A stretch of DNA of 64,000 nucleotides from an uncultured Chitinophagaceae bacterium. Its GTDB lineage: Bacteria > Bacteroidota > Bacteroidia > Chitinophagales > Chitinophagaceae. The notes beneath the pieces were generated by a model, which worked only from the letters and a program-made list of their open reading frames with translations, made no database searches and was not told where the DNA came from. The stretch is taken from assembly GCA_963754585.1 (NCBI GenBank), contig CAVWGT010000002.1, positions 8,865 to 72,864 of the forward strand, in the 5' to 3' direction. The translations under genes and the position numbers were made by a program. Positions within the stretch are counted from its first letter, which is position 1. Each line of letters opens with the position of its first letter. Positions 721 to 38,197 of this stretch are shown here, piece by piece.

Positions 721-729
721 GGGAGCAGG

Positions 730-928: not shown

Positions 929-974
929 CCGCACTCGATCACCGCGGATCATTCTGATATTGATAATACTTTAA

Positions 975-2749: not shown

Positions 2750-2928
2750 TCAGATTGTTATTTCAACCGCAAAGATAACGGGATTGTTTTTTCTAAGGAA
2801 GCGTCTGGTGCTGATCAAAACGCCGGGAATATTATTTCCTGTCAATAGGGAGTAGTTTCGGGTGAATTTTCTTCTTTTTAGAAATAAAAAACAACATTTA
2901 ATCCAAGAACCGTATCAAGACCAATCTT

Positions 2929-3573
2929 ATGAAGAAGACAGTAATTTTATTTTCGGCGCTTTTAGCCCTTACGGTTTTAATCAGTGCTGTTTCAGCTCCT
3001 AAACAAGACGGATGGATCTCAATTTTTGATGGCAAATCCCTGAAAGGATGGAAGGTCGGCAATAATGCAAGTTCTTTCTCGATCGAGGATGGTGCTATTA
3101 AGGTCAACGGGCCAGTTGGGCATTTGTTTTACGAAGGTCCTGTGAAAAACCATATGTTCAAAAACTTTGAATTTAAAGCACAGGTCATGACCAAACAGGG
3201 TTCAAATTCCGGGATTTATATTCATACCACTTATCAGGAAACAGGCTGGCCATCAAAAGGTTATGAAGTGCAGGTGAATAACTCACACACAGACTGGAAG
3301 CGGACGGGAAGTTTGTACAACATCGTGGACGTGAAAGAAACATATGTGAAAGATGATGAATGGTATACTGAATATGTCAAAGTAGAAGGCAAACACATTA
3401 CCATCAAAATCAACGACAAAACCGTTGTAGACTACGAGGAAAACGACACCGACAAAAGATCAGCCGGTGAAAAAGACAGAATCCTGAGCAGCGGTACCTT
3501 CGCTTTGCAGGCGCACGATCCAAAAAGTACGGTATACTTCAAAGACATCATGGTAAAACCATTGACTGAGTAA
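2929..3573 (+). CDS. Secreted DUF1080 (3-keto-disaccharide hydrolase-like) domain protein
   Basis: Signal peptide MKKTVILFSALLALTVLISA, then DGWISIFDGKSLKGWK...FKNFEFKAQV...SGIYIH...GYEVQV...FALQAHDPKSTVYFKDI, typical of the family. Confidence 0.8.
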   Translation: MKKTVILFSALLALTVLISAVSAPKQDGWISIFDGKSLKGWKVGNNASSFSIEDGAIKVNGPVGHLFYEGPVKNHMFKNFEFKAQVMTKQGSNSGIYIHTTYQETGWPSKGYEVQVNNSHTDWKRTGSLYNIVDVKETYVKDDEWYTEYVKVEGKHITIKINDKTVVDYEENDTDKRSAGEKDRILSSGTFALQAHDPKSTVYFKDIMVKPLTE

Positions 3574-4818: not shown

Positions 4819-5085
4819 AGGTTCCACCGCCGCACCCTTTTGAGACCCAACTGTTTTTTGCCTTTTGTTTAACGCTGAATTATCAGCACAAACCAAATTG
4901 CGCGTATGATGTCGATTCTTGCCTTAGTGATCTGTCCGCCGGACTGAAAATTTGATTTTGATATTATTTTTAGCTGTATCTGTGTTTTTTTAACAGTTTG
5001 GCTACTATTGTTTTCACTGCCCTTTTGTGGTAGTCTGGAAGCGAATGGAATTCCTATGTTTTCACTCCAAAAAATTATCACTGCA

Positions 5086-6447
5086 ATGAACTTACGTTTT
5101 TGCTTTCAGGGAAAATTATGGACTTTAATATCCTATGTCCTGTATCTGTCCCTTATGTTTTTATTGCTTCAATGCTGGAAACCTGTCCAGGCCCAGCAGT
5201 ATCCGGCCGTGCGGATCGGGGAGAAAGTGCCTGATCTGACCATTCCCGGTGTGATCGGCGGTAAGAGCCCGTCTGTGAAACTTGCCGATTTCCGGGGAAA
5301 ACTGTTAATCCTTGATTTTTGGGCCACCTGGTGCAGCCCGTGCGTGGCAATGATTCCGGTGATGGATTCGCTGCAAAACCGCTTTGCGGATAAAGTTCAG
5401 TTTCTTCCTGTAACTTATCAAAGCGCCTCGCAGGTGAATGGATTTATCAGCAGGTATGCCGCCCGAAAGGGCAAACGTATACAGCGTACGGAAGTGGTAT
5501 CTGACAAAATTTTGTCTTCACTTTTTCCACACAATGCCTTTCCTCATTACATCTGGATCGATCAAAATGGTATTGTAAAAGCCATCACTGGCATGGACGA
5601 GATTACCGCGGAAAAAATCCAGGCATTTTTAGATAAGCCAAGTCTTGTCTTAAGCCGTAAAGAGGATGCTCCACGTATACCCTACACGGATAAAAAACCT
5701 TTCCTGGTTGCCGGAAATGGGGGAGATGGCAGCAATCTCATGTACCATTCCGTGCTGGCCTGCTACACTGACGGGCTTGCGAGCGCCTACTCCATCGGGA
5801 AAGCCGATAGCGTGCTGGGACGGAAGGTCACCGCATCGAATCTAGGGCTTCAAGGCATGTTCCAGCTCGCCTACGGAGAGGGAAAACGGTATTTCGGAAA
5901 GAACAGGACGGTTGTTGAAGTGGAAAACCCTTCTGAGCTTGATGTCTCTTTGACAGGAAACGCGCTTATTGACTGGTTCAAACAGGGCCACGGGTTTTGT
6001 TATGAAGTGATCGTACCCTTTGCTTTTAGGGAGCGGGCCTTTGATATTATGCGAAGGGATCTGACACAGTTCTTTCCAATGTATCAGGCCAGGGTTGAAA
6101 GCCGTTTGAAAAGATGCCTGGTGCTGGAAAGGACCTCTGCCAATGACAAGCTTGCGAGTAAAAAGGGAGCAGTAAAAACTACCTTCGATCAGGCCGGATG
6201 CAGCCTTCGCAATACCAGCATTAAATCACTTACCGGCATGCTGGCTGTGATCTATATGCAAGGATCGCCTATGCCAATCGTTGACCAGACCGGGTATAAG
6301 GGTGCTGTGGACCTTGATCTGGAAGCAGACCTTACAGACGTCGGCCAGCTAAACACCGCCCTTGCAAAATACGATCTGCGGTTTGTCGAGCGCGAGCAGC
6401 CCATTGAGCTATTGATCATAGGCAGCAGTGCTGCCCAAACCCACTGA
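5086..6447 (+). CDS. TlpA/redoxin-family thiol-disulfide oxidoreductase fused to a C-terminal domain resembling the TIGR03435 family
   Basis: Signal/anchor MNLRF...LLLQCWKPVQAQ. Thioredoxin motif LILDFWATWCSPCVAMIP. C-terminal PIVDQTGYKGAVDLDLEADL resembles the DxTGLxGxYDFxL motif. The start at 5086 was chosen over the ORF-track start at 5008. Confidence 0.7.
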   Translation: MNLRFCFQGKLWTLISYVLYLSLMFLLLQCWKPVQAQQYPAVRIGEKVPDLTIPGVIGGKSPSVKLADFRGKLLILDFWATWCSPCVAMIPVMDSLQNRFADKVQFLPVTYQSASQVNGFISRYAARKGKRIQRTEVVSDKILSSLFPHNAFPHYIWIDQNGIVKAITGMDEITAEKIQAFLDKPSLVLSRKEDAPRIPYTDKKPFLVAGNGGDGSNLMYHSVLACYTDGLASAYSIGKADSVLGRKVTASNLGLQGMFQLAYGEGKRYFGKNRTVVEVENPSELDVSLTGNALIDWFKQGHGFCYEVIVPFAFRERAFDIMRRDLTQFFPMYQARVESRLKRCLVLERTSANDKLASKKGAVKTTFDQAGCSLRNTSIKSLTGMLAVIYMQGSPMPIVDQTGYKGAVDLDLEADLTDVGQLNTALAKYDLRFVEREQPIELLIIGSSAAQTH

Positions 6448-6454
6448 TTTACAT

Positions 6455-9400
6455 ATGAAAGATTTACTTATACTAATCTTGATCTTTTTTTAGCTGTGCC
6501 GGTTTCTGCCACGCGCAGTACTGTACACGGACGCGTGGTGTCTCAAAAAGACGGCACCGCACTGGTAGGCGCCTCTGTAAAGATTAAGAAATCCAGCTCA
6601 GGAACGCTTACGGATGTGGATGGTACTTTTTCACTTGCCGCGGAAGGAGCAAGTCCGGTACTTATCATATCATTTATCGGCTTTGTAACCCAGGAATTTG
6701 TAGTTTCTGACCAGCAGCCCGTTTTAATCTCCATGCAGGAAGATGCCAATCAACTCAGTGAACTGGTTGTTTCAACCGGTTATGAGCAGATTCCCGCAGA
6801 GCGCTCGACCGGCTCGTTTGCCCACGGTTGACCAAAAGCTTTTAAACCGCAGGGTGAGCACGGATATTTTAAGCCGTATGGAAGATCTGGTTCCGGGTCT
6901 TAGCTTCCGGAAAGGAAAAGGAACTTACACCAACGCCATATCGATACGTGGAAGAAGCACCATCAAAGGAAATACCCAGCCGCTGATCGTTGTAGATAAT
7001 TTTCCTTTTGAAGGCGATATCAACAGCATCAATCCCAATGACATTGAAAATATTACGATCTTAAAGGATGCGGCGGCCGCTTCGATCTGGGGCGCTAGGG
7101 CAGGAAACGGTGTGATTGTCATCACCTCCAAAAAAGGGCGGGTCGCCAAGCCGTCCCTTAGTTTTAATTCCAATATCACATTCAGCGCTAAGCCCGATCT
7201 TTTCTACCGCTCGACGGATGAGCAGCTCCGAATTTATAGATGTCGAAAAGATGCTGTTTCAAAAAGGATATTATGCCAGCTCAGAAAATTCAGTGGCCAA
7301 AGCTCCCTCGACCCCAGCCGTGGAGCTTATGATTGCGGGCCGTGATGGTAAAATTACCCAGCAGCAGCTCTCTTCTGACCTGGCCGGTTTGTCCGCGCAA
7401 GACGTCAGAAATGATTTTTCAAAATATTTTTACAGGACAGCAGCAAACCAGCAGTATGCCCTCAATTTAAGCGGAGGTAGCCAGGCAAACCGCTATTTTT
7501 TCTCGGCGGGTTATGATAAGAATTTGGCTGCCGAAGTGCGTAACGGCTATGACAGGGTCACATTAAGCGCAAACAATACGTATCAAAACGAAAGCGGGCG
7601 GCTTGAATTCTCTACGGGTTTGTATTTCGCATCCGCAGATAACGGCCAATAATAACCCTGGCATAGCAGCCATCCGGTTTAATCCCTACACGGGTATTTA
7701 TCCCTATGCGCGCCTTGCTGATGCCGGTGGCAATCCACTCAGCACGGTAAATACTTACAGGCAATCTTTTGTCGATGCGGCTCAGGACAATGGTCTTTTG
7801 GATTGGCATTACAGCCCTTTGCAGGAACTGAACGTATCTGACAACAAAACCAGTACAACCCACTACCGTGCGAATGCTGCCCTTAAATACAAACTAACCG
7901 GCGCACTGCGGGCTGAGCTTTATTTTCAGTATGCCAAAGACCAGTCCTCGGCCGTGAATCTGCAAAGTCAGGATAGTTTTTATACCCGCGATTTAATCAA
8001 CAATTATACCCAGGTCTCAGCGGCAGGTGTTTTAACCCGAGCTGTTCCTTTGGGCGCTATCAAAGATTTGACAAGCGCATCGGCTGCCAACTGGAACCTT
8101 CGCGGGCAGCTGCACTACAATAAAACCTTTGGCACAAAACATGAGCTTTCAGCCCTTGCTGGCTACGAGGTCCGTGATAATCATACGCTGAGTGGCAGCT
8201 CCCGGCTATATGGATATAATCCGGATTATGCCACGGTGCAGCCGGTTGATTATATCACCAGTTTTCCGGCCTATTACTATCCAAGGCTTGTAAGAAAAAT
8301 CCCTTTCCGGGATTCTGAATCTGATCTGACCGACCGGTTTGTCTCCCAATATGCCAATGGGGCCTATACCTATGCGCAGCAGTTGACGGTTTCAGCCAGT
8401 GCCCGTTTTGACCAGTCCAATTTGATCGGGACAAGCGACAAGGGAGTTCCACTTTGGTCTTTGGGCCTTGCATGGAACCTTCATCAGCAGGGGTTTTACC
8501 ATTTTTCAGCGCTTCCATACCTGAAAGTCCGGGCGACTTACGGTTATAGTGGTAATGTCAATAAATCTGTCACCGCGCTGACAACAGCCTACGCGGGCGG
8601 GATTAACGCGGTCTCACAGCTGCCTTATTCAACGGTTGTAAATCCTCCTAATCCTGATCTTCGCTGGGAGCGTTCCCGGATGATCAACACCGGGATCGAT
8701 TTTGAATCCAAGGGTAGTATCATTTCAGGAACGGTGGAATTTTACTGGAAAAAAGGGATGGATTTGATCGGGGTAACACCCTTTGCGCCTTCAACCGGGA
8801 TCACCACCTTTACCGGAAATACAGCCGACACAAAAGGGAAGGGGCTTGATCTGACCCTGAACAGTAAAAATATACAGCGGCAGATCGCTTGGAATACCAC
8901 CCTTCTGTTGAGCTATCAGACCGAGCGGGTCACCCACTATCCGGTGCAGGCTACTGCAACCAGTTATGTGCAGTCAGCAGATGGCATTGGTGTGGTGCCC
9001 CTTGAAGGAAAACCCGTTTTAGCGGTCTATGCCTACCGCTGGGCCGGGCTGGATCCTGCGACGGGGAACCCTTTGGGATACTTAAATGGTGACATCAGCA
9101 CGGATTATCAGAAAATCATCCAGACTGCAACGCCACAGAATCTGGATTATAAAGGGCCTGCACTGCCTGTGGTATTCGGCGCACTTCGCAATACGGTAAG
9201 TTGGAAAGGCCTTTCGCTCTCTGCCAATGTATCCTTCCGGCTGGGTCACTATTTCCGCCGGGAATCCGTACGGTACGCTGATGTCCTTTCCGGCGCAGGC
9301 AGTCACGGTGACTACCGGCTGCGCTGGCAAAATCCGGGCGATGAAAAGCGTACACATGTTCCTTCCATGCCCGAATCCTCGAATGCGAACCGGGATAATT

Positions 9401-9670
9401 TCTATGCGTTCTCCTCGGCCCTGGTCGAAAAGGCAGACAATATTCGTCTGCAGGATGTTTCGCTCAGTTATGAGCTTAATAAGAACTCGGAGCCCATGGC
9501 TGCCTTTCAAGAAAGTCAATCTTTATTTGTATGCCAACAATTTGGGTATTCTATGGAAAGCCACCCAAACAGATCTGGATCCGGACTATTCCACCGTGGG
9601 TGTGACCACAGTAGTGACCACCTATCCGCCGCCGCGTTCGCTGGCAATTGGTCTAAAAATTGATATCTAA
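6455..9670 (+). CDS. susC: SusC/RagA-family TonB-dependent outer-membrane transporter, interrupted by at least 5 frame changes
   Basis: The ATG at 6455 gives [12 protein letters not shown] and then a stop inside a T7 run (6485-6491). There is a CarboxypepD_reg-like segment ([20 protein letters not shown]...TDVDGTFSL), a plug ([29 protein letters not shown]), a barrel, and the C-terminus [21 protein letters not shown]...[11 protein letters not shown]. Pieces: 6496-6831, 6743-7345, 7116-7652, 7603-9663, 9227-9670. Confidence 0.85.
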
Positions 9671-9685
9671 ATAAAGCAGGAAACG

Positions 9686-11071
9686 ATGAAAAACATTTTT
9701 TTTAAATTTACGGTGCTGACCATTTGCCTTTTTGCCCTGGCCGCATGCAGTGAGCAGTTTTTGGAAAAAAAGCCTGATAAGGCGCTTTTGGTGCCTTCCA
9801 GCCTGAACGATTATCAGGCACTTCTGGACAATATCAACGTTTTTAATAACGCGCCGGCACTGGGTCAAATCGCCGGGGATGATTTTTACATCTCAGACGC
9901 AGGATGGCAGGGGCTGAGCGTGCTGGAGCAAAATACCTACACCTGGCAGAAGGATGTTTACGGTGGCACGCTGATGATTTCGGACTGGAATGTGCCTTAT
10001 CAACAGGTTTTTTATGCCAATGTGGTCTTGGATGGGCTGGCATCGCTCGATGTGAACCCGGGTGAGCAGGCCACTTACGAGACTCTGCACGCCAGTGCCC
10101 TTTTCTACCGGGCGCTCGCCCTGTACGGACTAACCCAGACGTTCACGCCAGGGTACGACCCCGCTTCGGCGGGGGCTACCCTGGGCATTCCGGTGCGTCT
10201 TCATGCAGATGTGGAAAAGCCTTCGCTTAATCTGAATCTGAGCAGTGCTATGAGCAGATTCTTTCAGATCTTACCGTCTCGGCAGCCAAGCTTCCGGCGC
10301 TGTCCGCAAACCGGAACCGGCCTTGTTCGGCATCAGCTTATGCGCTGATGGCGCGCGTGAACCTGGTGATGAGCCGCTATGATTCTGCGCTGGAAGCGGC
10401 AGACAAAAGCCTGGAGCTGAGCAGCAGTCTTCTTGATTACAATACGCTGGATTCATTAAAAGCGGTGCCTTTTCCGCTGGCGCTCCCCTCAGGCAAATCC
10501 GGAGGTGCTTTTTTACGACTGTCTTTTAAATTACAGTTATTTAAACAATGCGCTCACCCAGGTGGATACCGTGCTGGTAAAAAGCTACAAACCGGGGGAT
10601 CTGAGAGCCAAACTGTTTTTTCAGAAGGGCGCCTCAGGAAACCTGAATTTTCGCGGGACCTATACCGGAAGCATTGGTGTGGGCACAAACAGCGGACTTT
10701 TCTGCGGACTGGCTACCGACGAAGTGTACCTGATTAAAGCAGAATGCCTGGCAAGGACCGGCCAGAAGGATAAGGCCCTGCAAGCTTTGAATACAGTACT
10801 GGAAAAGCGCTGGCAAAAACAGGCTTTTGTGCCGCTGACTGCTGCCGATGCCGACGCAGCATTGTCGGTAATTTTGCAGGAACGCCGAAAAGAGCTGGTT
10901 GGCAGGGGGCTGCGCTGGTCTGATTTAAAAAGGCTCAACCAGCAGCAGGGTTTCAGATTGGATCTAAAAAGAAAGGTGGCACAGAAGCAGTATGAGCTGC
11001 CAGCCAACGATGAGCGCTACCGCTTCCCCGTACCGGTTTCAGAATATGTTACGGCCCGTCAGGGAATATAA
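9686..11071 (+). CDS. susD: SusD/RagB-family nutrient-binding lipoprotein, with 2 frame changes
   Basis: Lipoprotein signal MKNIFFKFTVLTICLFALAAC, SusD-like_3 N-terminus, and C-terminal LQERRKELVGRGLRWSDLKRL. Three overlapping ORFs in frames 2/1/2. Confidence 0.85.
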
Positions 11072-11111: not shown

Positions 11112-11354
11112 TTAACGGGCATAGGTGCCCAAGACCACACCTTGCGGTTCGCCGTCCACAAGCGCTGTTGCCGTACACTCATCGGTGCTCGCCGAACAGG
11201 TGTAAGTAGGACTGATAGGTTCCCAGGCCCCATTGATTTTACCAAATGCGGGATCTGCCACTTTGGGCGCTGAGGCTGTGGCAAAAGCAAAGCTGCTACC
11301 CAGTAAAAGGGCCGCTGCAAACAAGAAATCAACTTTTAACTTTTTCATCTTCAT
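11112..11354 (-). CDS. Small secreted peptide (80 aa precursor, about 55 aa mature) with two Cys; resembles the small DUF6520-type Bacteroidota proteins
   Basis: MKMKKLKVDFLFAAALLLGSSFAFA signal, then SAPKVADPAFGKINGAWEPISPTYTCSASTDECTATALVDGEPQGVVLGTYAR. The family assignment is from memory only. Confidence 0.55.
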   Translation of the reverse strand: MKMKKLKVDFLFAAALLLGSSFAFATASAPKVADPAFGKINGAWEPISPTYTCSASTDECTATALVDGEPQGVVLGTYAR

Positions 11355-11477
11355 ACTGTTTAAAATGTTAAAACTTAAATCAATCATGAACGCTTACTCT
11401 GTTTTCAGGTTTTCAGCGGCCCCTGGCAGCGGCAGGGCAACCGTCCGGGTTGTGCCTGCACTGTCTTATATTTTTTC

Positions 11478-11912
11478 TTACTTTGGTTTATGCAAAGAGG
11501 TTGGTAATCTGTGTGTTTGCCGGATAGCCAAAAGCGTCAGGCTCAGAAAAAAAAGATTGAAAAAAAAGTGCACAGGGAAATCCATAGATTTTAAAACGCC
11601 CCCGCAGCTGCAGGGAACCCTTTCAAAAACATTGAGCAGCACAAGTCCCATGTACCCCGTGAAAAAGCTCATCAGAAGCGCTGAGCCGTACAGGCCCCAA
11701 ACCCGGCTGGATGGGACAAACAGCAAAATCACCACCAGCGTTTCTGAAAGCGGAATCAGCCAGAGCAGCCAGGGTACAGACCAGACCGGGATGGCCTGGT
11801 TAGCAAGCTCTCTTTCAAAAACTTTCAGATCAGCCCATTTCACTGCGGCCGTATACACAAAAAGAAGGATGAGTGCGGCCGTAATCAGCCGGGTAGCCAT
11901 GCTGTTTTTCAT
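11478..11912 (-). CDS. MauE/DoxX-family redox-associated membrane protein
   Basis: 144 aa with 4 hydrophobic segments. AVKWADLKVFERELANQ...VPCSCGGVLKSM is typical of the MauE family. Confidence 0.7.
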   Translation of the reverse strand: MKNSMATRLITAALILLFVYTAAVKWADLKVFERELANQAIPVWSVPWLLWLIPLSETLVVILLFVPSSRVWGLYGSALLMSFFTGYMGLVLLNVFERVPCSCGGVLKSMDFPVHFFFNLFFLSLTLLAIRQTHRLPTSLHKPK

Positions 11913-12087: not shown

Positions 12088-12648
12088 TTATGTGGGCATT
12101 CTTCGGATTTCACTCATTCGTCCCGGTGAAATTTCCAGATAGCTTGCGATGTCTTTTAAAAGAAGGCGCTGGGACGGGAAAATTTGCCGGAAATGCTCGT
12201 AGGCCAGGGCGGTAGGAAGCGAGCACAGAAATGATTTGAGCTCGCCATGATTTCGGTCATTGAGTATAATCTTGCTGGAAAGCTTGGGTGCTTCCCTAAA
12301 GGTATGGTACAGATAGATGAGGCTGCTGTCTGAAAGTGTGGTCAGGTAGCTGTCTTCTAAAAGCATGATGCTGTCCGTAGCTATTTTGTGACTGGGACCG
12401 CCGGCCAGAAGCATCACCTGATCCTCTTTCCAGAAGCGGGTGACATGTTCTTTTCCTTCCTGATCCTGATAATAGCCCTTGGCAAGACCACTTTTGATAT
12501 ACCAGATCATAGGTGTCTGGCCCTGGCGGCTAAGGATGTCCCCCTTTTTGTAGCGTTTTTGAATGAGCGCCTGATCAAGGGCAAGCCTGAAATCCTGGCT
12601 AAGCGGATAAAGTGCCGCGAAATGATCGGTGAGTTTTAAATTTTTCAT
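12088..12648 (-). CDS. Crp/Fnr-family transcriptional regulator
   Basis: 186 aa. Cyclic-nucleotide-binding-like N-terminus (KKGDILSRQGQTPMIWYIKSGLAKGYY...) and C-terminal HTH (LKDIASYLEISPGRMSEIRR). Confidence 0.8.
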   Translation of the reverse strand: MKNLKLTDHFAALYPLSQDFRLALDQALIQKRYKKGDILSRQGQTPMIWYIKSGLAKGYYQDQEGKEHVTRFWKEDQVMLLAGGPSHKIATDSIMLLEDSYLTTLSDSSLIYLYHTFREAPKLSSKIILNDRNHGELKSFLCSLPTALAYEHFRQIFPSQRLLLKDIASYLEISPGRMSEIRRMPT

Positions 12649-12668: not shown

Positions 12669-13859
12669 TCAGTATTCTTTAATCCAGTTGATCACCGATT
12701 CAAGCATTTTGATTACGGTTTGTTTGTCTTTCTCTTCAAAAGCATAGGATTTTGAGCGCATGCTTTCCCAGGAAATTTCAGCTTTCCTGGGCGTGGAAAG
12801 AAAGGGTACAATGCTTTCAAAAACCCTGCTCATCGAGCGCGCTTTTAGGATTCTGAGCGAGTCCAGCGCCCTGAGAAGCAGCCCGATCTGATCTACCGAG
12901 AGAAGGACCATGATTTTGAAGGATTCGGATGCAGGCCCAGCAGCCGCGAGATGTTCAAGCGGGATAGGGTCCGGCTGCGGTATATCTTTGAGATAGCCGA
13001 TCTCCTGGGTAAACCAGTTGGATATGAACTTTCTTATATCCGAATGTGCCGGGCTTAGTTTGATACCTGGCTTTCGGTGCATCTGATTAAACTGCTTGTA
13101 ATGCAAAAGAAGGTGGCGTATCTTTTCGTTCGGCTGCGTGATCGTATCGATTTTACCGGCCAGATACCGGGTATAATAGTCCAAAAATGGCCTGCTGTTA
13201 AAATTAAGATAAACCAAAAGTTCGAGCAGGGCATCGTTGATTTTCGGATGCTGCACGGTCAGTAGCGTTTGTTCTATTCCATAGAGTAGTTCTCTTTGAT
13301 AAAACACGGTCCGGAAACTTACCGGCTGCAGCCAACTGCTTGTATCAATGCTTAAAGAATCCAGCAGAATAGCGACCAGATTGGGGTCCGCATTTTTGGA
13401 TGTAAGCTGATGTTTTGCCTGGCTGATGCGGCTATGATGCTGCCGGGTAAATTCTGCAAGGTAGGTATGCGGTGCATGCTCGTCAAGGTCCAAGTAATCC
13501 CTGTGGCTGCTTTGAATAAAGCTCAAAAGCTCATAGACACACCCGGTGAGCTGTGCCAGCGCGTCTGCTGCCAGGGTGTTCAACGGATTGATCCGGGCTG
13601 TTGCCTGTGCTGCCTGGTCAAGCAGCAGCAGCAGGCTTTGATGGTGCTGTTTGATAAGAAGCTGTATTTTTCGTCTGCTGGAAAGTCTCAGACGCTGGCG
13701 GTTGCAAAAGCTGATGTAATTTTGTTTTTTCTCATGTATCTTCCCGGTGATCTTTTCGTACTGCGCTGTCGAGAGCGTACTTACTTCGGATTCACCGGAT
13801 TCAAGGACAATGGTGATAATGAAATCCAGCCATTCCAGTGTATTTTGCTTTTCTATCAT
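12669..13859 (-). CDS. Hypothetical 396-aa helical protein. The last ~80 aa are reminiscent of the RteC-type C-terminal winged helix (weak).
   Basis: Long intact ORF in a gene-dense same-strand block. The C-terminus FKIMVLLSVDQIGLLLRALDSLRILKARSMSRVFESIVPFL... loosely resembles RteC C-termini. No motif I can name firmly. Confidence 0.5.
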   Translation of the reverse strand: MIEKQNTLEWLDFIITIVLESGESEVSTLSTAQYEKITGKIHEKKQNYISFCNRQRLRLSSRRKIQLLIKQHHQSLLLLLDQAAQATARINPLNTLAADALAQLTGCVYELLSFIQSSHRDYLDLDEHAPHTYLAEFTRQHHSRISQAKHQLTSKNADPNLVAILLDSLSIDTSSWLQPVSFRTVFYQRELLYGIEQTLLTVQHPKINDALLELLVYLNFNSRPFLDYYTRYLAGKIDTITQPNEKIRHLLLHYKQFNQMHRKPGIKLSPAHSDIRKFISNWFTQEIGYLKDIPQPDPIPLEHLAAAGPASESFKIMVLLSVDQIGLLLRALDSLRILKARSMSRVFESIVPFLSTPRKAEISWESMRSKSYAFEEKDKQTVIKMLESVINWIKEY

Positions 13860-13974
13860 AAGAACGTCGAGTTAAAAAACTAAAAATTTTCAGTCCTAGA
13901 AGAGAAGGGAACTATCGCGGTTTGGGGTGCCGGTTGGCATTGACAAGCGAGCTGCTGCTGACATAGGTTTTAAT

Positions 13975-14004
13975 GGAAAGCAGCTCGCAGGTGAGCTGCT
14001 TTCC
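13975..14004 (-). terminator. Perfect 12-bp hairpin 23 nt downstream of the 47-aa peptide ORF
   Basis: GGAAAGCAGCTC-gcaggt-GAGCTGCTTTCC. The T-tail on the minus strand is weak (ATTAAAACC). Confidence 0.55.
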
Positions 14005-14026
14005 TGCTGCCTTTAAGCAGCGTGCT

Positions 14027-14170
14027 TTACTTTGGCGTAATGAGCGTGCAGATCATGCCACTTGTGGTGACAGAATCAGAACCGGGCTTTTCTGATTTAT
14101 TCTGCCAAATCCTGCTTTTAAAGTAATTCAGCGTTACTTCTTTGAAAACGAGTTTTTGATGCTTTTTCAT
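14027..14170 (-). CDS. Candidate RiPP (class I lanthipeptide-like) precursor peptide, 47 aa; below the ORF-track size cutoff
   Basis: My own translation: MKKHQKLVFKEVTLNYFKSRIWQNKSEKPGSDSVTTSGMICTLITPK. Lys-rich MKK..KL.F.KE..L leader-like N-terminus. The last 18 residues hold 7 Ser/Thr and 1 Cys. The same promoter motif as lanB lies 68 nt upstream, and a strong hairpin lies 23 nt downstream. Confidence 0.55.
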   Translation of the reverse strand: MKKHQKLVFKEVTLNYFKSRIWQNKSEKPGSDSVTTSGMICTLITPK

Positions 14171-14231
14171 GATCATCTTTTTGGTTTGTGAAAAATAGGA
14201 CAACCCGCAAAAGAAGCATCACCGGATGAGG

Positions 14232-14295
14232 TGTAAAAATTTATGTGACCGCAGGGTTTTAGCTTGGTTTGAATGGCCAGGATACTGATTTGAAT
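14232..14295 (-). promoter_or_regulatory. Promoter/operator region of the peptide gene: a conserved 24-mer plus two 9-bp direct repeats in 21-bp phase
   Basis: Minus strand: ATTCAAATC (14295-14287) -N12- ATTCAAACC (14274-14266) -N10- CCTGCGGTCACATAAATTTTTACA (14255-14232). The 24-mer contains a TAAATTTT element like the Bacteroidetes -7 box TAnnTTTG. Confidence 0.5.
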
Positions 14296-15438
14296 CGTGT
14301 TTTCTGCCACTGAAAATAGGGCTGAATGGCAAAGCAGCGCCAGTAAATAATCATCGGGCGAATTTTTTTTCAGCATTGCTACATGAAGTAGTGTTTTAGG
14401 CTTGGAATTAGTCGCCGTGTTGCATGTGCGCCGGAGAATTGGACCGCTTGGGATCAAAGAATCGATAACTTAAGTAATGCCGTAGCCGCTGGGGATAAAC
14501 AAGTTTTAGCGGAATGATCCCGTCACAATCGTTTAACCCAGATGTTTCTCTGAAATAGCATCCTATCCAACAAGGATAAGATGCATCCTTAAAATTTGTG
14601 GATCTTGTTAAAAGCTTTACTGTTTGTTAGCCGCTTTTAGTTGCAAGGCAGCAAAGTACTAATGAATCAAAACAATAAGGATGCTGAAAAGTTACAGAAG
14701 TTTGGCAACTAAGAAGATTGGTCCGGGGCAAAAAGGACTATTGATTCCACCGGAGTGTTGAAAGATACGGTTGGTGTGTAAAGGTAGCATCGTAGATGAT
14801 ACTATCCTGCCTGAGGCTGAAATACAGATCAAGCTTGAATGTGACCATCTTGACAGTCGTTTGACAAAACGTCATCGGGCGAGCCTGTTTCCATCGTCCG
14901 AGTTGCAATTTTTTTTTACCCATGTACAGTACTTAATGGACTGATTATCAGTGCGAAAAAAACGTTTCAGCTTAGCACGTACGAACGGTTTTTTGGACTA
15001 AAAATTTCTGCAACTAAAAGCCTAATAACTTTCCAGTACTATAGGCAACAACTTTTTATTTTTTTGGCGGCTACATGGCCATTAGGGTAAGAACTTATCG
15101 GCTGAATGCTTTTTTATGCTGATGCTAATGGCCAATCCTGTGATTGCTTGATCCAATGATTCAGAATATAGCTTCTCACAGGTAAAAAAATGATGTTTTG
15201 GTTTCTTGTCAAAGATTTTGAAAAGAAATGAAGCATTTAATATTACCACTAATTACAGGTGTGAACCGCTGACCGGGATCAAACCCTAATTAGCATTTTA
15301 AGGTTAACTACTTTTTGCCAATTATTTATATTGATCGGTTCGAATACAGATGAAATGAGCTTTTCTAATGGTGGGGGTTAGAGGATACAGGATTATTTTG
15401 AACGTACAGCGTCTTTAATACTTTGTTTTAAACTGAGA

Positions 15439-16623
15439 CTAAGGAGCTTTCAGGGGAACTGCAGGTGAAATCAGCGGCAAATCAAGCGTAATACTGAAAT
15501 GCTTCTCGTTTTCAGTTGCAGTCAGGCTATATTGGCCCTGAGCACTGATTTCAAGACGCTTTTTGATGTTGTCCAGTCCGATGCCGGAATCTCTCTGGTT
15601 TTTGGGTTTGATAAAAACGGCGGGTTTATTGTTTGCGATTATAAAAAGGAGTCTGCCTGCTTTTACACGCAGCTCGACATCGATCCAGCAGTCTTCAAAC
15701 GTTGAGTAAACCCCGTGTTTAAAAGCATTGTCTGCAAGGGTGAAAAGGACCAGCGTCGGCACAAGATGGTCGGGTGAAATCTTCCCTTTTTGCCGGACAT
15801 TGACTTTCAGACGGTCGTTAAAACGCTTGGCTTCCAGGTCCATGAAATGTAGCAGTGCATGCCATTCGCTTTGAAGCGGAATCAGTTCCTGATCCGTCTT
15901 ATAGAGTATAAAACGAAGCACGTCGCTAAGATTGATTAGATAGCCGGACGCCTTTTTGCTAACTTTCAGAAGGTCCGATAAAACAGAATTAAGTACATTG
16001 AAAACTAAGTGGGGTGCTGACTGCGTGCGCAGGATAACCAGTTCGTTTTTTAGTATGTCGGCTTCAAGCGCCCTTTGCTTGATTACAAGATCCCTTTTCT
16101 GAATCAGCTGCTGAACTCCATACTGGAACATTTTAAGACCCAGCGGAAGAAAAAGGATCTGCGTCTCAGTCACATCGTAAATCAGAAGCATTAGCCAGTC
16201 ATCAGCCTGGTTTTGACCGGGCGGCCTTAGGTACATCGTTCCAAAGTGTAGGAAATTCTCCGAAAGGCTGCCGAGCCCGTATTGCTGATCCAAAACAAAA
16301 TAGACCGATACAGTCGTAGTGTGCATCAATAGTACCATAAAAATACCACTGAGCACCATCAGGCTTCCCCCATAATACTTTTCTTTCAGATGGTTAAAGA
16401 CGCCTGCCGACAGATAATATACCGGAATAAACCTTAGGTAATACAGTGCGTAGGCAATCACCCAGCTGGTTTCATAATGAATTTTTTCCTTTGAGCCTGC
16501 AAAGTATAAAAGATGAAACACCATAAATACCAGCCAGAAAACCGCGTGGTACTTCAAGCGTCGTCTCAGCGTCTTGGGCTGCAGAAGATAGCGAAGCGGG
16601 AAATGATTGACATGTTTATCCAT
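15439..16623 (-). CDS. LytS/YehU-type sensor histidine kinase (membrane N-terminus + His_kinase + GHKL ATPase)
   Basis: About 5 hydrophobic segments in the first 170 aa. H-box region RTQSAPHLVFNVLNSV. ATPase motifs TLADNAFKHG and DSGIGLDNIKKRL. Overlaps the regulator gene by 8 nt. Confidence 0.85.
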   Translation of the reverse strand: MDKHVNHFPLRYLLQPKTLRRRLKYHAVFWLVFMVFHLLYFAGSKEKIHYETSWVIAYALYYLRFIPVYYLSAGVFNHLKEKYYGGSLMVLSGIFMVLLMHTTTVSVYFVLDQQYGLGSLSENFLHFGTMYLRPPGQNQADDWLMLLIYDVTETQILFLPLGLKMFQYGVQQLIQKRDLVIKQRALEADILKNELVILRTQSAPHLVFNVLNSVLSDLLKVSKKASGYLINLSDVLRFILYKTDQELIPLQSEWHALLHFMDLEAKRFNDRLKVNVRQKGKISPDHLVPTLVLFTLADNAFKHGVYSTFEDCWIDVELRVKAGRLLFIIANNKPAVFIKPKNQRDSGIGLDNIKKRLEISAQGQYSLTATENEKHFSITLDLPLISPAVPLKAP

Positions 16624-17454
16624 AAAGCGGCCCTAGTTTTTTTAATACCTCGCTTCTTAAATACCGTGAAACCTTGGCCTTGTGCTTGCTTTTGTTCATG
16701 ACCATTTCATTGCCAACCAACTTTTTTGCCAGCTGACCGTTGATGATATACGACCTGTGGGTTTTGATGAAAATGTGCGGTAGCTTCTCGATAAGTAGCG
16801 CAAGTGATATGCGGACCAGGTACGATCTTTCTTTGGTATATATTTCAACGTAGTTGCCTTGTCCTTTCACCATATAAAGGTGACGGTAGGCCACCGAAAG
16901 AATAATCTTGTCCACCCGGATCCACATGATTTTTTCTTCAAAAGCCGGGACCTGCCTTCGATGGGCAAGCATCTGATCCGGGCCGGGTATTTTTTATAAG
17001 GACTTGAAAAGGATGCTGCGAATCACCCAGAAAGCCTTGGTCAGGGTCTGTAAGATCCTGCTGGCGGATTTTGCCTGCTCTTAGCATCCGCACCTTGTGA
17101 ACAGCTTTCAGAAATCTTTCCATCGAGAAAGGCTTCAAAAGAAAATCAGCCACATTGTGATCAAAGCCATCTATCGCAAACCGGGCGTGGGCCGTAGTCA
17201 TAATCACTGACGCACTGATTTTTCCCGACAATACCAAGAAGCTCTAGACCAGAAATGTAAGGCATATCCACATCAAGAAAAATGATGTCAAAATCCCTGG
17301 CAGAGATCGCTTCCACGGCCCTGACTGCATTCATACAGCCTTCGGAAAATTCCAGGCCCGGAATCTTGCTGATATAAAATTTAATGGTTTGGTGTGCTGC
17401 GCTCTCATCATCCACAATGAGACACCGCAGCGGAGGTATAACCTGCTGTTTCAT
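16616..17454 (-). CDS. LytTR-family response regulator, with 2 frame changes
   Basis: Receiver (CLIVDDESAAH...DIIFLDVDMPYISGLELL; SASVIMTTAHARFAIDGFDHNVADFLLKPF) and LytTR domain (YVEIYTKERSYLVRISL...FIKTHRSYIIN) in three overlapping ORFs. The first shift maps to an A5/T5 run near 17215. Confidence 0.8.
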
Positions 17455-17582: not shown

Positions 17583-20500
17583 TCAGCGGTTTTTATTTTT
17601 CGAAGTGAAGGCATAATATTTCTTTAGATAATGATAGACGGCCAGTTCCTGTTGCCGGTGACGGCAGTAAAACCAGCGGTTTAAAAATAGGTGCACCAGA
17701 TCAGCTGCCACTTTGGCTTTCACATGCTCCTCTTGCAGTGCAGGGTGGAAACTTAGTCGTTCGAGCAGGGTGGACCGCTTGCTTAGAATCAAGCTAAGCC
17801 TTTGGATGTCGGCAGATTTTTCAGCGCCCATCAGTTGAATGATCTGCTGTTTTTGCGTCCGGTAGTTTTGATCCATTTGCCTTCGAAGCAGTCCGTTGGC
17901 ATCCAGCTCGGCCGAAAACTGCCGGTGCATCGTCTGAATCAAACCGGTCCTGCCTTTCAGATCAAAGCCAAAATCAGTAAGCAGACGATCCGTGCCAAGC
18001 AGTGCTCCTTGCCAGCGGAACTGTTCGTTAGTTGCCATTTCTTTCAGACAATTTAGCACCGTGCAGCTGTCCAGGTGAAAGACGGATTCGATCTTGGCGT
18101 AGACCTGCTGCGGGAAACGTTCGAGTTCCCTTTGATAGCGGTCGGTTTGAACACGCTGAACCATACCACTTTCCAGCATAGGTTGCAAAAGCGTGTGCAG
18201 CTCCTTGATGATAAGTGACCAGAAATCATTTTTACTGCTGTAAAACCGCATGCGGATATGGGGTTCCGGATCCCGGTAACGGATAAAAAACCATTTGCTG
18301 ATGATTCGGCGTTTTTTTAGCAAAACCAGAAACGGAAACAGCGTGCCGGTCAGCAAAGTATCACAAAGCCTTTCTGTGCAATAGATTTTTATATACAGCC
18401 AGCGGGTCCCTGAGGTGAAATTACGGGTCATTCCACCTTGTTTAGTGTAAGCTGGCACCTGTGCAATAGCTGCGGCGTTGTGAGAATTTTTAAAGGGAAT
18501 CACAACTTCGTTTGCGAAATATTTGGCATCCTGCGAGATTAAGCCCTCTGAGGGCCTTTCCAGAGACTCTGTGATGCGAAGGCTGCCTTCTTTTTTTAGC
18601 ATTTGAGCCAGAAGTGCCAGTGAGTGCTCGTTTTGGCTGTCTATCAGAAGCATCTGATCGCCTTTTCCGGCAGTGAAGAACCTTGGGGTATGAATCCTTT
18701 TTTGAACACCTTGCCACCAACTGCGTTTTCTTTTGTCAGACTCCATTTCCCGCTCTCTATTTAGCAGCCAGCTGGCTTTGCTGATGATGAGCTTGTCATA
18801 CTGCACACGGGGCAGAAATGGGGCGTCTTTGTATTTTCTCCAGTCCCAGACCAGCGAAATTGAGTTCTGGCTGCCCAGATCGCAAAGAAAACGGTAAACG
18901 GGAAGGCCCATGCTAAAATTGTGTGCACTGCTCAGCACAGGCATGATCGGTTTTTTTAGCAAAGGGCTGCTCAGTATCAGGTTTTTTCCATCTGGACAGC
19001 TCAGGAAAAGATCGGCAGGGTCAATTCTTTTTTCGGGTATCTTGGTACTTTTTGTTAAATACGGGATCTCAAAGTCTCGAAGATCAGGTCTTTGGGCGAT
19101 GTTACCGGCCTTCCCGTCTGGCAAATGGGCGATCTCTGCATAAATTACTCTTTCATCCTGCGCCTGTTCGCTTTGGATCATATCTGCAACATGCCGGGTG
19201 AGCACCGGATCCTGCGCACAGAACCTTGTCAGAAGGTTGGCTGCCGAGGGGCCGTAAAGTCCTTTAAGCTCAAAAAGAAAATCGCCTTGATCCAGCGCCT
19301 GCGGTGAGTGGGTATGAACACTGCCAAACACATAGAAGCTGGAAGGCAACTGCGGAATATCCGCATTTTCGTTGGCTTTTAGAAGCGCATCGGTAAGCGC
19401 TACCTGCTGGCTTCCCATGGGAGAGGCGGTCTGATAGAGCCCTTCGGCAAGATCATTTAGATGACCGTCCCTGGCCTTTTCGTCAGATTCACTCAGGTCA
19501 ATACCTTTCAGCAGCGGCAGAGTACGCTGCGTGTTGGTGCTTAGTGTGCCGTATCCTATGCCATAATCGTAATCAAGCGCGCACAGCAGCGGAATGGACT
19601 GCTGGCCATAACGGGCGGCAAAACGGCGGGTAAAATCTTGCAGATCCTGACTGTCCGTCTGACTGGAGAGCATGCCGATACGGCTAAGCATAGCCCCGAG
19701 CTTGGAAAGGAACTTATGGCTGAATGTAGCAGTATTCGCCTGGAAACCAAGTGTTGTATGAATGGTATTTTCCAAAGGATGATCCGTTTTAATCAGGTGA
19801 TTAAGCATTTTGTTGATCTGAGCCACCGGGGCGTTTTTATCAAGCTTTTTTTGGATTCGTCCTATCCTGCCTACCACCGCCTTTGTTCTCTTAAGTGTTT
19901 TGAGCGCTACTGAAAGGAGTGTAAGATAGTCCTGTCCGGTAATGTTGAGCTCGATACTGCTGACAAGAATCTGCGCTTTGATCAGCTCATTTACATATGC
20001 CTTAGCGCTTGCAGCACTTAATTTTTCATGCCTTAAAAGCGAAGTGAGTTGCAAAGGAGTGAGCCCTTTTTTCGCGCGGTCCAGTAACTTTCCAAGTGCC
20101 GGGTGAAATTCAGCCTGACTCAGTAGGGATATCGTTTGGTAAGAATCTGGCAGCCTTCTGATGTATCGGTAACTTTCCCCGACCCTGTACAGCGAGGAGC
20201 TTGGGTAAAAAAGAAGCTGGGATCGTAGATGGTCTTTTCCAAGAATATATTTCTGAATGGCGTGCTGCGCGCTGGTGTCCAGACGGCATCGTATGGCCAA
20301 AGGGTTTTGCACGCTGAAGTCAATTTGGGTGCGCGCCGCTGTTTCAAAAGTAAGGTAGCCTGCAAAAAGACCAAAAGGCGTGCATCTGCCGCAAGCGCGG
20401 ATTAAATATTTGTAAAGGCTTATAAGAAGCTTTTCTTTTCCTTTTACCGGTTTTTGGTCCACAAGAGCCCGGGTCATCTCATAAAGCGTGCCTGAGGCGA

Positions 20501-20660
20501 GCTGGATGCCTTCTAACAAAACAGGATCAGAAAAGATTTTTTGCAGCTCTGGTTCAAATCTTGAAGGATCCTTGCTGGTAAGATTGTGAAAGGATATCAG
20601 AACGTTTCTAGGCAAAAGAGGGCGCCGAAGCACACCAAAGCCGTAAGGTTGCAGTTTCAT
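17583..20660 (-). CDS. lanB: Full-length class I lanthipeptide dehydratase (LanB-type: N-terminal glutamylation domain + C-terminal elimination / SpaB_C domain)
   Basis: Intact 1025-aa ORF. N-terminal YKYLIRACGRCTPFGLFAGY is typical of Lant_dehydr_N. C-terminal RWLYIKIYC...KWFFIRYRDPEPHIRMRFY is typical of the thiopeptide-type bacteriocin biosynthesis (Lant_dehydr_C) domain. Confidence 0.85.
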   Translation of the reverse strand: MKLQPYGFGVLRRPLLPRNVLISFHNLTSKDPSRFEPELQKIFSDPVLLEGIQLASGTLYEMTRALVDQKPVKGKEKLLISLYKYLIRACGRCTPFGLFAGYLTFETAARTQIDFSVQNPLAIRCRLDTSAQHAIQKYILGKDHLRSQLLFYPSSSLYRVGESYRYIRRLPDSYQTISLLSQAEFHPALGKLLDRAKKGLTPLQLTSLLRHEKLSAASAKAYVNELIKAQILVSSIELNITGQDYLTLLSVALKTLKRTKAVVGRIGRIQKKLDKNAPVAQINKMLNHLIKTDHPLENTIHTTLGFQANTATFSHKFLSKLGAMLSRIGMLSSQTDSQDLQDFTRRFAARYGQQSIPLLCALDYDYGIGYGTLSTNTQRTLPLLKGIDLSESDEKARDGHLNDLAEGLYQTASPMGSQQVALTDALLKANENADIPQLPSSFYVFGSVHTHSPQALDQGDFLFELKGLYGPSAANLLTRFCAQDPVLTRHVADMIQSEQAQDERVIYAEIAHLPDGKAGNIAQRPDLRDFEIPYLTKSTKIPEKRIDPADLFLSCPDGKNLILSSPLLKKPIMPVLSSAHNFSMGLPVYRFLCDLGSQNSISLVWDWRKYKDAPFLPRVQYDKLIISKASWLLNREREMESDKRKRSWWQGVQKRIHTPRFFTAGKGDQMLLIDSQNEHSLALLAQMLKKEGSLRITESLERPSEGLISQDAKYFANEVVIPFKNSHNAAAIAQVPAYTKQGGMTRNFTSGTRWLYIKIYCTERLCDTLLTGTLFPFLVLLKKRRIISKWFFIRYRDPEPHIRMRFYSSKNDFWSLIIKELHTLLQPMLESGMVQRVQTDRYQRELERFPQQVYAKIESVFHLDSCTVLNCLKEMATNEQFRWQGALLGTDRLLTDFGFDLKGRTGLIQTMHRQFSAELDANGLLRRQMDQNYRTQKQQIIQLMGAEKSADIQRLSLILSKRSTLLERLSFHPALQEEHVKAKVAADLVHLFLNRWFYCRHRQQELAVYHYLKKYYAFTSKNKNR

Positions 20661-20715: not shown

Positions 20716-20800
20716 TGTAAAAATTTATGTGACAGCAGGTTGCTAAGGAGATTTGAGTAGCTAAAAGCAGCATGCAAAGCGCTTTCGGATGACTTTGAAA
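20716..20800 (-). promoter_or_regulatory. lanB upstream region: the conserved 24-mer plus TTCAAA-type boxes in 21-bp register
   Basis: Minus strand CCTGCTGTCACATAAATTTTTACA (20739-20716) differs at 1 of 24 nt from the copy at 14255-14232. ACTCAAATC (20758-20750) has identical spacing to the box at 14274-14266. TTTCAAAGT (20800-20792) lies exactly 42 nt further upstream. Confidence 0.5.
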
Positions 20801-21499: not shown

Positions 21500-22241
21500 C
21501 AAAGATTTTTGCGGTGATTGATCTATATGCATCAGCAGTAAGACTGTGTAAGGATTATCGTTGTTATCATTTAAGCTGCATTGCAGATCTGAAGCTTGCC
21601 CAGCTGAGGTGATCACCACCAGATCATAACGGTCCTTTTCTGTTTGCTCAACCGGAAAGTTTCCCAACGGGTGATAATGGGAGGGCCTGATTGTTTTCAA
21701 GTTTTTTCATGATTTCCTTTCTCAGATTTTTCTCATGATTAGGTTGACCTTCCAGTGTTATTCTATATTTGCGACTTGCTTGGATGCTGTCAGATAAGTC
21801 AGTTATCCTTCTCAGGCAGATGCTTAGTGTAGAAATCGCTTTCCGCTTTTCTTCCGGTTCTTCATTAGTGAGCACCTCAACTGGTTGATTCAGCTGTTGC
21901 ACTGCTACACCGGCCATGATTTCTCTTCTTCCAACGGCGCTGGAAATAATGAGGAGGCATGAAGATAATCCTTTGTGCGATAACCCAGGTGTTGTGCGTC
22001 CGGTTCTAAGCAACCAAGAGATGAACGCCTACCAGAACAGATCGCAGATCTTTGCGGGATTTTGAAGACACTTACTTTTCATATTGCCCGGCACACGTTT
22101 GCTGCAACCGTGATACTGAGTAACAAAGTGCCGGTTGAAACAGTTTCTAAGATGCTCGCGCATCGATCTTTGATGCAGACGATGATTTATGCCAAAATTT
22201 TGGACGTGAAGATTAGAGAAGATATGAAGGTTTTGAAGTAA
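21500..22241 (+). pseudogene. Decayed tyrosine recombinase (Bacteroidetes integrase family): many stops, frame changes and an internal deletion
   Basis: My own translation. 22026-22241: EQIADLCGILKTLTFHIARHTFAATVILSNKVPVETVSKMLAHRSLMQTMIYAKILDVKIREDMKVLK* (HxxRH box and catalytic Y). Another frame just upstream gives ISLLPTALEIMRRHEDN...VLSNQEMNAYQ, and 21880-21925 gives LIQLLHCYTGHDF. No + ORF of 60 aa or more exists here. The 5' limit is approximate. Confidence 0.7.
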
Positions 22242-27990: not shown

Positions 27991-27995
27991 AACGT

Positions 27996-38186: not shown

Positions 38187-38197
38187 AGGTATTTGGT

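Follow-up and report, generated by a model that had tools for sequence, protein, structure and literature searches.

The question raised by this locus is whether a short open reading frame (ORF) of 47 codons encodes the precursor of an enzymatically modified peptide, and of which kind. The ORF is located on the minus strand of a window of 64,000 nucleotides (nt), which is the whole stretch of DNA that was analysed, from contig CAVWGT010000002.1 of an uncultured Chitinophagaceae bacterium, and a gene for a LanB-type lanthipeptide dehydratase lies 3.4 kb upstream of it. An earlier note had proposed it as a candidate precursor peptide, and this was supported by its linkage to LanB at 26/26 loci, by ratios of nonsynonymous to synonymous substitution rates (dN/dS) of 0.06–0.32, and by a conserved hairpin behind the gene. 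The ORF is a real protein-coding gene under purifying selection, and its product most likely belongs to an undescribed family of modified peptides, as the substrate of its LanB. We put the probability at about 0.78 that it is the precursor of a LanB-dependent, LanC-less peptide that the ribosome synthesizes and that is modified post-translationally (RiPP), the leader being ~33 and the core ~14 residues long. The gene and its predicted parts, whose boundary was set where the conservation of the family starts, are as follows (aa, amino acids).

14027–14170 (stop codon included), minus strand: precursor-peptide gene, 47 aa, supported by translation, orthologues, family and dN/dS
14072–14170, minus strand: predicted leader, residues 1–33
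14030–14071, minus strand: predicted core, VTTSGMICTLITPK

The 47-codon gene and its family

The ORF was present exactly as it had been described: the reverse-complement translation of 14170–14027 gives MKKHQKLVFKEVTLNYFKSRIWQNKSEKPGSDSVTTSGMICTLITPK followed by a stop codon, and the count of seven Ser/Thr within the last 18 residues and one Cys in the whole peptide was borne out. By size alone it is unremarkable among the 146 ORFs of at least 30 aa found in 15 kb of the window; short ORFs being this common, the case for a peptide gene rests on comparative evidence, i.e., conservation, dN/dS and synteny. The exact 47-aa sequence was found to be already present in a protein collection (P0001, from an NCBI/ENA assembly) and its relatives were labelled "hypothetical protein", so that the description of the gene as unannotated holds for its function, not for the ORF as such. 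Two alternative starts are in frame, an ATG at 14176 that gives MIMKK, as the earlier note had pointed out, and a TTG at 14203 that would give a 58-aa version. The orthologues begin at MKK, which makes 14170 the conserved start.

In protein searches, Dyadobacter sp. CY356 and D. diqingensis gave 47-aa "hypothetical proteins" of 80% identity, and further orthologues were identified by tblastn in D. psychrotolerans, D. luteus, D. koreensis and Dyadobacter sp. CY312. Pairwise dN/dS among seven orthologues was in the range given above, with synonymous sites near saturation, and the variable columns of their alignment were distributed as 23/16/40 over codon positions 1/2/3. The absence of coding constraint in relatives would have spoken against the proposal; the constraint was shown to be strong. 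Neither a Pfam nor an NCBIfam model matched the window peptide, and a comparison of 23 family members with both collections gave nothing better than E = 0.48. No known RNA element was detected by an Rfam search of 13700–14600, and no cassette protein matched an anti-phage defence model in PADLOC.

A profile search of 5.8 billion proteins returned 32 family clusters, of which the named ones were all from Dyadobacter and all "hypothetical protein"; the family thus appears to be restricted to this genus. Its members are ORFs of 43–50 aa. They vary in their basic N-terminal part; the C-terminal core is conserved and consists of (I/V/M)TTSGxxC and another 4–7 residues. Among 23 aligned members the TT of the core was invariant and S, G and C were each conserved in at least 90%, with leaders down to ~20% identity. 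A strict version of the core motif gave zero off-target matches in six-frame scans of 82 loci. The C-terminal sequences of the subfamilies are given below, with locus numbers (L) for those outside the window clade.

Window clade: ...PDPITTSGMICTLI.RR
L008, L009, L011–L013: ...DDDDPITTSGTICTLIAQN
L016, L017, L020, L022: ...GDDPITTSGTICTLIGKL
L023–L025: ...DTTTVTTSGTTCGLASAD
L041, L060, L061, L076: ...DTITTSGTTCGFRRRQR
L021: ...KSMTTSGMICDTRLQT
L018: ...ETTMTTSGTTCTQGW
L010, L014, L015: ...LDGITTCTIISTILKQGKR

In the conserved TTSGxxC, Ser and Cys stand four residues apart, and the Ser/Thr and Cys residues are placed for a thioether ring. The subfamily of L010, L014 and L015 has ITTCTIISTIL (ITTCxxxS type), in which Cys and Ser are exchanged at both of the proposed ring positions (i and i+4), as predicted by a Ser-Cys lanthionine bridge. 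The suggestion that at most one thioether is possible fits these data and is supported by the positional swap.

The LanB cassette and its mobile-element setting

The gene directly downstream of the peptide gene encodes a conserved 396-aa protein, here called p396. A p396 profile built from 25 sequences was used to scan one genome per species, which gave 80 loci, and cassette content was read from tblastn tables of the related loci. In Dyadobacter a recurring cassette was found, with the order LanB, LytTR regulator, kinase, a gap of 300–500 nt, p396, Crp-like regulator and, not constantly, MauE and DUF6520 genes. It is flanked on the opposite strand by relaxase, MobC, RadC and DUF932 genes and, convergently, by (TlpA), SusD and SusC genes, and several paralogous copies may be present within one Dyadobacter genome.

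All 26 Dyadobacter LanB loci, the window included, contained a same-strand family ORF of 43–50 aa between the histidine kinase and p396 genes; homologous small ORFs near related LanB genes, whose absence would have argued against a precursor, are therefore the rule. Where LanB was present the peptide was found at 26 loci and missing at one, and where LanB was absent it was found at two and missing at ~50 (Fisher p = 2e-17, uncorrected for shared descent). The lone LanB-positive locus without the peptide carries a LanB of 25% identity from Zunongwangia. In this Zunongwangia sp. H14 locus (L070), the LanB-like gene (363–3428) lies ~6 kb upstream of the p396 homologue and no small ORF of the TTSGxxC type was found; it may represent a different LanB system on a related element.

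The cassette of the window and its surroundings comprise the following genes.

17583–20660, minus strand: LanB, full-length class I lanthipeptide dehydratase, 1025 aa (Lant_dehydr_N 4.6e-115, Lant_dehydr_C 1.5e-57; TIGR03891)
16616–17454, minus strand: LytTR-family response regulator, in three frames (Response_reg and LytTR pieces in frames -2, -3 and -1)
15439–16623, minus strand: membrane histidine kinase (PF06580), partner of the LytTR regulator
12669–13859, minus strand: p396, conserved 396-aa all-helical protein, always immediately downstream of the peptide gene (family and synteny)
12088–12648, minus strand: Crp-like regulator binding cyclic nucleotide monophosphates (domain scan, tblastn synteny)
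11478–11912, minus strand: MauE/DoxX-like membrane protein, in the cassette of some subfamilies only
11112–11387, minus strand: small DUF6520 protein with a signal-peptide-like N-terminus, as read from the translation
5056–11044, plus strand: TlpA-like redoxin, SusC and SusD, convergent with the cassette

The LanB of the window contains both domains of the class, PF04738 and PF14028 (E-values as listed), i.e., those for glutamylation and elimination. Its closest solved relatives are MadB (5e-47) and NisB (2e-25). The catalytic residues of NisB are reportedly those listed by Garg in 2013 and Ortega in 2015. R83, R87, T89, D121, R464, R786 and R826 of NisB all have aligned equivalents in the window protein, and a His is present in its C-terminal VHLFLNRW, where NisB H961 is expected. 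Judged from its two domains and these residues, the enzyme looks active. Between the kinase gene and the peptide gene there is ~1.3 kb without a convincing ORF (14171–15438).

Gene integrity varied within the window and among related loci. The regulator (16616–17454) contains two +1 insertions compared to its D. diqingensis and D. psychrotolerans orthologues, which split it over three frames; neither of them is in a long homopolymer, and it is therefore probably a real pseudogene. The SusC-like and SusD-like genes (6529–11044, plus strand) are each spread over several frames, whereas the TlpA-like gene (5056–6456) and the LanB, kinase, peptide, p396 and Crp-like genes are all intact. This non-random pattern of broken genes suggests gene decay rather than sequencing error, and with two frameshifts in its response regulator the circuit may be silent or non-functional in this genome. 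In D. soli, LanB (L017, 6461–8557) seems truncated, covering query residues 19–726 only, and in Dyadobacter sp. MSC1_007 it is split into two frames (L023, 4016–7089); the adjacent peptide genes are intact in both, which indicates that the cassettes decay piecemeal. The peptide gene of D. frigoris still adjoins the kinase gene, but p396 is ~5 kb away from it, with an IS21-like element (IstB-type ORF) in between (L018, 4399–4548 and 9489–9752). A second LytTR regulator, intact, is located in the window beside a large Y_Y_Y/Reg_prop hybrid-type histidine kinase (27247–30383, minus strand), an architecture unrelated to that of the cassette system.

The p396 family is widespread and uncharacterised in Bacteroidota, and outside Dyadobacter it occurs without LanB, kinase or Crp-like genes. 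No Pfam match to p396 was obtained. Its AlphaFold model has a mean predicted local distance difference test (pLDDT) score of 74, with 85–90 over the N-terminal ~290 residues. A hidden LanC-like cyclase was considered and rejected, as no PDB fold match was found below E = 0.69, there is no invariant Cys and the protein occurs widely without LanB. In Hydrobacter and Flavobacterium (L083, 8001–9212; L085, 8001–9206), the p396 homologue is located between a regulator gene (hybrid histidine kinase-response regulator-GerE, or AraC) and a tra operon (DUF4134, DUF4133, TraG, TraJ). RteC of CTnDOT holds that same slot between regulator and tra operon. The likeness to the RteA/RteB/RteC system is one of position only; assignment of p396 to RteC by sequence found no support, as none of 25 family members gave a Pfam RteC match at E ≤ 1. 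The Dyadobacter p396 genes are not followed by a tra operon. CTnDOT-type conjugation genes were also detected in the window (36842–51747, minus strand: YWFCY, relaxase, MobC-like, TraN (DUF4138), TraM and TraG), which puts the LanB cassette at a distance of ~17 kb from a conjugative element or, possibly, inside it. Given these genes and the position of p396 at tra operons elsewhere, p396 is best read as part of a mobile-element backbone, possibly with a regulatory role.

Two further ORFs lie beyond the cassette. Judged by translation only, a 59-aa ORF (22062–22241, plus strand) looks like the C-terminus of a tyrosine recombinase (…ARHTFA…HRSL…Y…); no other part of such a gene is evident, and the ORF, which is located between the cassette and a 1160-aa gene, may be what is left of an integrase. 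The 1160-aa gene (22660–26142, minus strand) encodes a highly repetitive Gly/Thr/Asn-rich protein without a Pfam match at E ≤ 1e-4.

Hairpin and upstream elements

The elements around the peptide gene, all on the minus strand, are listed from the stop codon side to the upstream side, followed by the element at LanB.

13975–14004, minus strand: perfect hairpin with a 12-bp stem and a 6-nt loop, GGAAAGCAGCTC-ACCTGC-GAGCTGCTTTCC, 22 nt past the peptide stop
14208–14215, minus strand: second candidate promoter box TTCTTTTG (TTnnTTTG type), 38–45 nt upstream of the ATG
14232–14255, minus strand: 24-nt box CCTGCGGTCACATAAATTTTTACA, which includes the -7-like TAAATTTT, 23/24 match to the box upstream of LanB
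14265–14295, minus strand: direct repeat ATTCAAATCA-N11-ATTCAAACCA with a 21-bp period, candidate LytTR site, binding predicted
14307–14329, minus strand: imperfect palindrome CCATTCA-N9-TCAGTGG, farther upstream than the direct repeats and conserved within the window clade
20716–20739, minus strand: second copy of the 24-nt box, upstream of LanB, CCTGCTGTCACATAAATTTTTACA

The 12-bp hairpin that had been noticed downstream of the ORF was confirmed as real and structurally conserved. It folds at -31.9 kcal/mol (z = -5.8 compared to shuffles), and a GC-rich hairpin was found 3′ of the stop codon in 27/27 family loci, followed by a T-run in many of them; both its sequence and its position relative to the peptide stop vary between subfamilies. 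Lying between the peptide gene and its downstream neighbour, it probably acts as a terminator or attenuator. The peptide stop and the start of p396 are 59–429 nt apart; with the 59–62 nt of L008–L013, p396 begins immediately behind the hairpin, an arrangement that implies read-through and no promoter of its own for p396. Of the idea of a strongly terminated monocistronic unit, the hairpin part stands, and the unit is probably not strictly monocistronic, since no more than 59 nt separate the stop from the following gene in some relatives. Between the hairpin and the p396 start there is a non-coding block (13860–13960, minus strand: …CACCCCAAACC.CGATAG.TCCCTTCTCTTCTA.GA.TGAAAATTTTTAGTTTTTTAACTCGA…) that is nearly identical in three species, its conservation exceeding that of the peptide ORF; it could serve as promoter of p396, as an element of a 5′ untranslated region or as a binding site.

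A scan for sigma-70 and terminator consensus sequences was uninformative here, as Bacteroidota promoters fall outside its consensus. The -7 box of Bacteroidota promoters has the consensus TAnnTTTG. The promoter-like motif noticed previously, TAAATTTT at 14236–14243 (66–73 nt upstream of the peptide ATG), is present and agrees with this consensus at 7/8 positions, and a box like TTCTTTTG was found at a similar distance in all subfamilies. The 24-nt box common to the upstream regions of the peptide gene and LanB can be written CCTGC(G/T)GTCACATAAATTTTTACA; from its end to the ATG there are 62 nt at the peptide gene and 56 nt at LanB, and its 15-mer core has only two occurrences in 64 kb. A TCAAA half-site was found at the same offset upstream of both genes in the window, and comparable box pairs and common TTCGTnCCC half-sites were detected at the LanB and peptide promoters of other loci. 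The boxes and half-sites fit a scheme in which the adjacent regulator would control enzyme and substrate together.

LytTR-type regulators such as AgrA, ComE, BlpR and PlnC/D bind direct repeats of 9–10 bp with a 21-bp period. The repeat ATTCAAATCA-N11-ATTCAAACCA is unique in the window (0.06 expected by chance), and 21 bp was the top direct-repeat distance of 16 tested in 6/8 subfamily representatives (shuffle p 0.003–0.04 each); among control loci it was one of the best distances in only 6/51. The direct repeat of the peptide gene was not found upstream of the window LanB when up to three mismatches were allowed, only the TCAAA half-site being present at the equivalent position. Whether the LytTR system drives expression of the peptide we regard as evenly balanced. 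The imperfect palindrome reads CCATTGA-N9-TCAATGG in CY356 (L001, about 9815–9840); that a dimeric regulator, for instance the Crp-like protein, might use it as an operator is speculative, and as a significant motif in the window it found no support (two matches compared to 4.2 expected).

Proposed maturation, alternatives and significance

In the proposed mechanism, transcription would start from the Bacteroidota-type promoter, activated by the adjacent LytTR regulator through the repeats of 21-bp period; the hairpin would stop most transcripts, and a fraction would read through into p396. The leader (the first ~33 residues) would be recognised by LanB, which would glutamylate and eliminate Thr35, Thr36 and Ser37, and possibly Thr42 and Thr45, to give dehydrobutyrine and dehydroalanine (Dha) residues. 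Dha37 would then be attacked by Cys41, at the i to i+4 spacing found in ring A of nisin, and one lanthionine ring would form, a step that we consider slightly favoured over its alternatives; with no LanC in the cassette, closure would be spontaneous or carried out by an unlinked cyclase. The mature peptide of ~14 residues would be an autoinduced secreted product, antimicrobial or a signal or both.

Several observations weigh against a LanB-dependent RiPP, and everything in this account beyond a coding gene linked to LanB is what we infer. The cassettes are related by descent, so that the co-occurrence counts overstate independence. The chief evidence against strict LanB dependence comes from CY356 and CY312, which keep an intact, constrained peptide gene together with p396 and the Crp-like gene and have no LanB, regulator or kinase gene within 10 kb of it; either LanB acts in trans there or the peptide has a LanB-independent role. 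The tightest neighbour of the peptide gene is the downstream p396, not LanB, and this constant neighbour is common elsewhere without LanB. NisB D299 aligns ambiguously with the window LanB, the regulator of the window cassette is broken, and the Ser/Cys swap is a single evolutionary event. The window hairpin has no T-run behind it, which is why the terminator scan missed it. The cassettes of the window, L008 and L010 and the larger window ORFs that were scanned contained no gene for LanC, a leader protease, an ATP-binding cassette (ABC)/C39 exporter or immunity, and the lack of LanC means that this is not a canonical class I lanthipeptide cluster. Neither an FNLD box nor LxLxKx5L plus GG was present in any of the 23 aligned members. 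The remembered likeness of the N-terminus to Bacteroidota leaders does not strictly hold, as the published class I leaders of this phylum have an LxLxKx5L motif and a GG cleavage site (PMC7268733). The peptide thus resembles a class I lanthipeptide precursor but fails two features of the class, LanC in the cluster and a recognised leader motif, and matches no curated model.

Among the alternatives, the one that survives best takes the LanB-matured peptide to be an autoinducing pheromone rather than an antibiotic, sensed by the kinase, with the LytTR regulator activating the promoter and read-through into p396 and the Crp-like gene coupling cell density to the behaviour of the element; the ORF is a precursor in this reading too, and only the function differs. 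This seems to us unlikely, although much of the arrangement would suit it: the peptide gene comes directly after the kinase gene with LytTR-type repeats upstream, the cassette lacks immunity, exporter and protease genes, and the predicted product is small, with one ring. AgrD/AgrCA, ComC/ComDE, BlpC/BlpRH and PlnA/PlnBCD likewise combine a small peptide gene with a membrane histidine kinase, a LytTR regulator and repeats of 21-bp period. Those circuits belong to Firmicutes, and their peptides are unmodified or thiolactone-cyclised by AgrB and leave by dedicated ABC or AgrB export, whereas the present cassette has LanB as its enzyme and no export route was seen in it. A link to the element is suggested by the RteC-like slot of p396 in Hydrobacter and Flavobacterium, by the relaxase, MobC, RadC and DUF932 genes flanking the cassettes, and by the p396 start 59 nt past the peptide stop in some relatives; however, p396 gives neither a Pfam match nor a fold match and in Dyadobacter is not followed by a tra operon, and the sole basis of the pheromone reading is genomic context. 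Antibiotic and pheromone are, moreover, not mutually exclusive, since nisin-like lantibiotics are both antibiotic and autoinducer. In its full form, a single-ring pheromone matured by LanB, sensed by the adjacent kinase and LytTR regulator, autoinducing and controlling excision or transfer of the element through read-through into p396 and the Crp-like gene, we find the reading a degree less probable again.

A canonical class I lanthipeptide antibiotic, with LanC, exporter and protease encoded elsewhere and acting in trans, is improbable. The NisA/NisB system is alike in having a small gene near a full-length LanB and a leader followed by a Thr/Ser-rich core, and the catalytic residues of LanB are in place here. 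The N-terminus of nisin, with ring A in ITSISLC, resembles the ITTSGxxC core (ITTSGMIC in the window), with Cys four residues after Ser in both. The nisA gene also has its own promoter and a hairpin before the downstream genes, and a two-component system is adjacent in both, of OmpR type (NisRK) in nisin and of LytTR type in the Dyadobacter cassette. In contrast to nisin, the window cassette has no LanC, LanT, LanP or immunity genes, one Cys only and no FNLD-type box, its host is a member of Bacteroidota, and such cassettes are found on mobilisable or conjugative element backbones. LanC, exporter and protease were absent from all 26 sampled cassettes, which is unexpected for required partners. 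At least one Dyadobacter species carries a separate LanB/LanC cluster (PMC12584681), which would suit supply in trans, whereas the lipid II motif of nisin, SxxxCTP(G/S)C (PMC7268733), is incomplete here, the second Cys being absent. Compared to the class I lanthipeptides of Bacteroidota (pinensin family; Walker et al., 2020, PMC7268733), the phylum, the LanB-type dehydratase and a basic leader starting with MKK are shared, whereas the LxLxKx5L motif, the GG site, the C39 protease/transporter and LanC are all absent here. LanB-type dehydratases without a LanC partner are found in thiopeptides, goadsporin-type linear azole peptides, lanthidins and pearlins (the last with a small LanB), but no YcaO/cyclodehydratase, [4+2] cyclase, LanD or other tailoring gene is present here, and LanB is of full length.

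Less probable still, and very improbable by itself, is an ORF that works independently of LanB, whether as a small regulatory protein of the operon beginning with p396 or, in cis, as its leader peptide or attenuator, with the proximity of LanB due to a shared mobile-element backbone. In favour of this, p396 invariably follows the ORF directly, on one strand with it and with the hairpin between, and the ORF is kept with p396 and the Crp-like gene in CY356 and CY312. However, it is mostly missing at p396 loci without LanB (L044, L046, L082 and ~45 loci outside Dyadobacter), and the strongest constraint is on the Thr/Ser/Cys core rather than on codons of a regulatory type. The differences in hairpin sequence and position between subfamilies do not favour attenuation, and the Ser/Cys swap is left without explanation. 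That the ORF is fortuitous, or that the DNA there is non-coding (a small RNA or part of a promoter, for instance) and gives no translated product, to which the abundance of short ORFs and the lack of a Pfam or NCBIfam family might point, is effectively refuted by the low dN/dS with its surplus of third-position changes, by frame and length being kept in 32 clusters despite ~20% leader identity, and by the negative Rfam search.

A LanB-dependent, LanC-less RiPP thus remains our preferred reading. Neither the cassette nor the peptide family was found described in the literature searched on Dyadobacter/Bacteroidota lanthipeptides and LanB systems, and we know of no characterised peptide quorum sensing in Bacteroidota. 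If this reading is true, Dyadobacter holds an undescribed RiPP family, in up to several copies per genome, made with a full-length LanB and without LanC. The mining of Walker et al. (2020, PMC7268733) was anchored on lanthipeptide synthetases and LanC, so that LanC-less clusters of the present kind were probably missed; any mining that requires LanC would probably miss the family, whose genes are at best labelled hypothetical. The TTSGxxC core and its Ser/Cys swap offer a simple system for asking if a single lanthionine ring forms without LanC. The presence of LanB with a LytTR two-component system and LytTR-type repeats on mobile-element backbones would be a new regulatory combination, one that suggests autoinduction by peptides in Bacteroidota and perhaps an element whose behaviour is under the control of a signal. 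Should the pheromone reading be the true one, the peptide would be a RiPP that carries a signal from cell to cell and governs a conjugative or mobilisable element in Bacteroidota.

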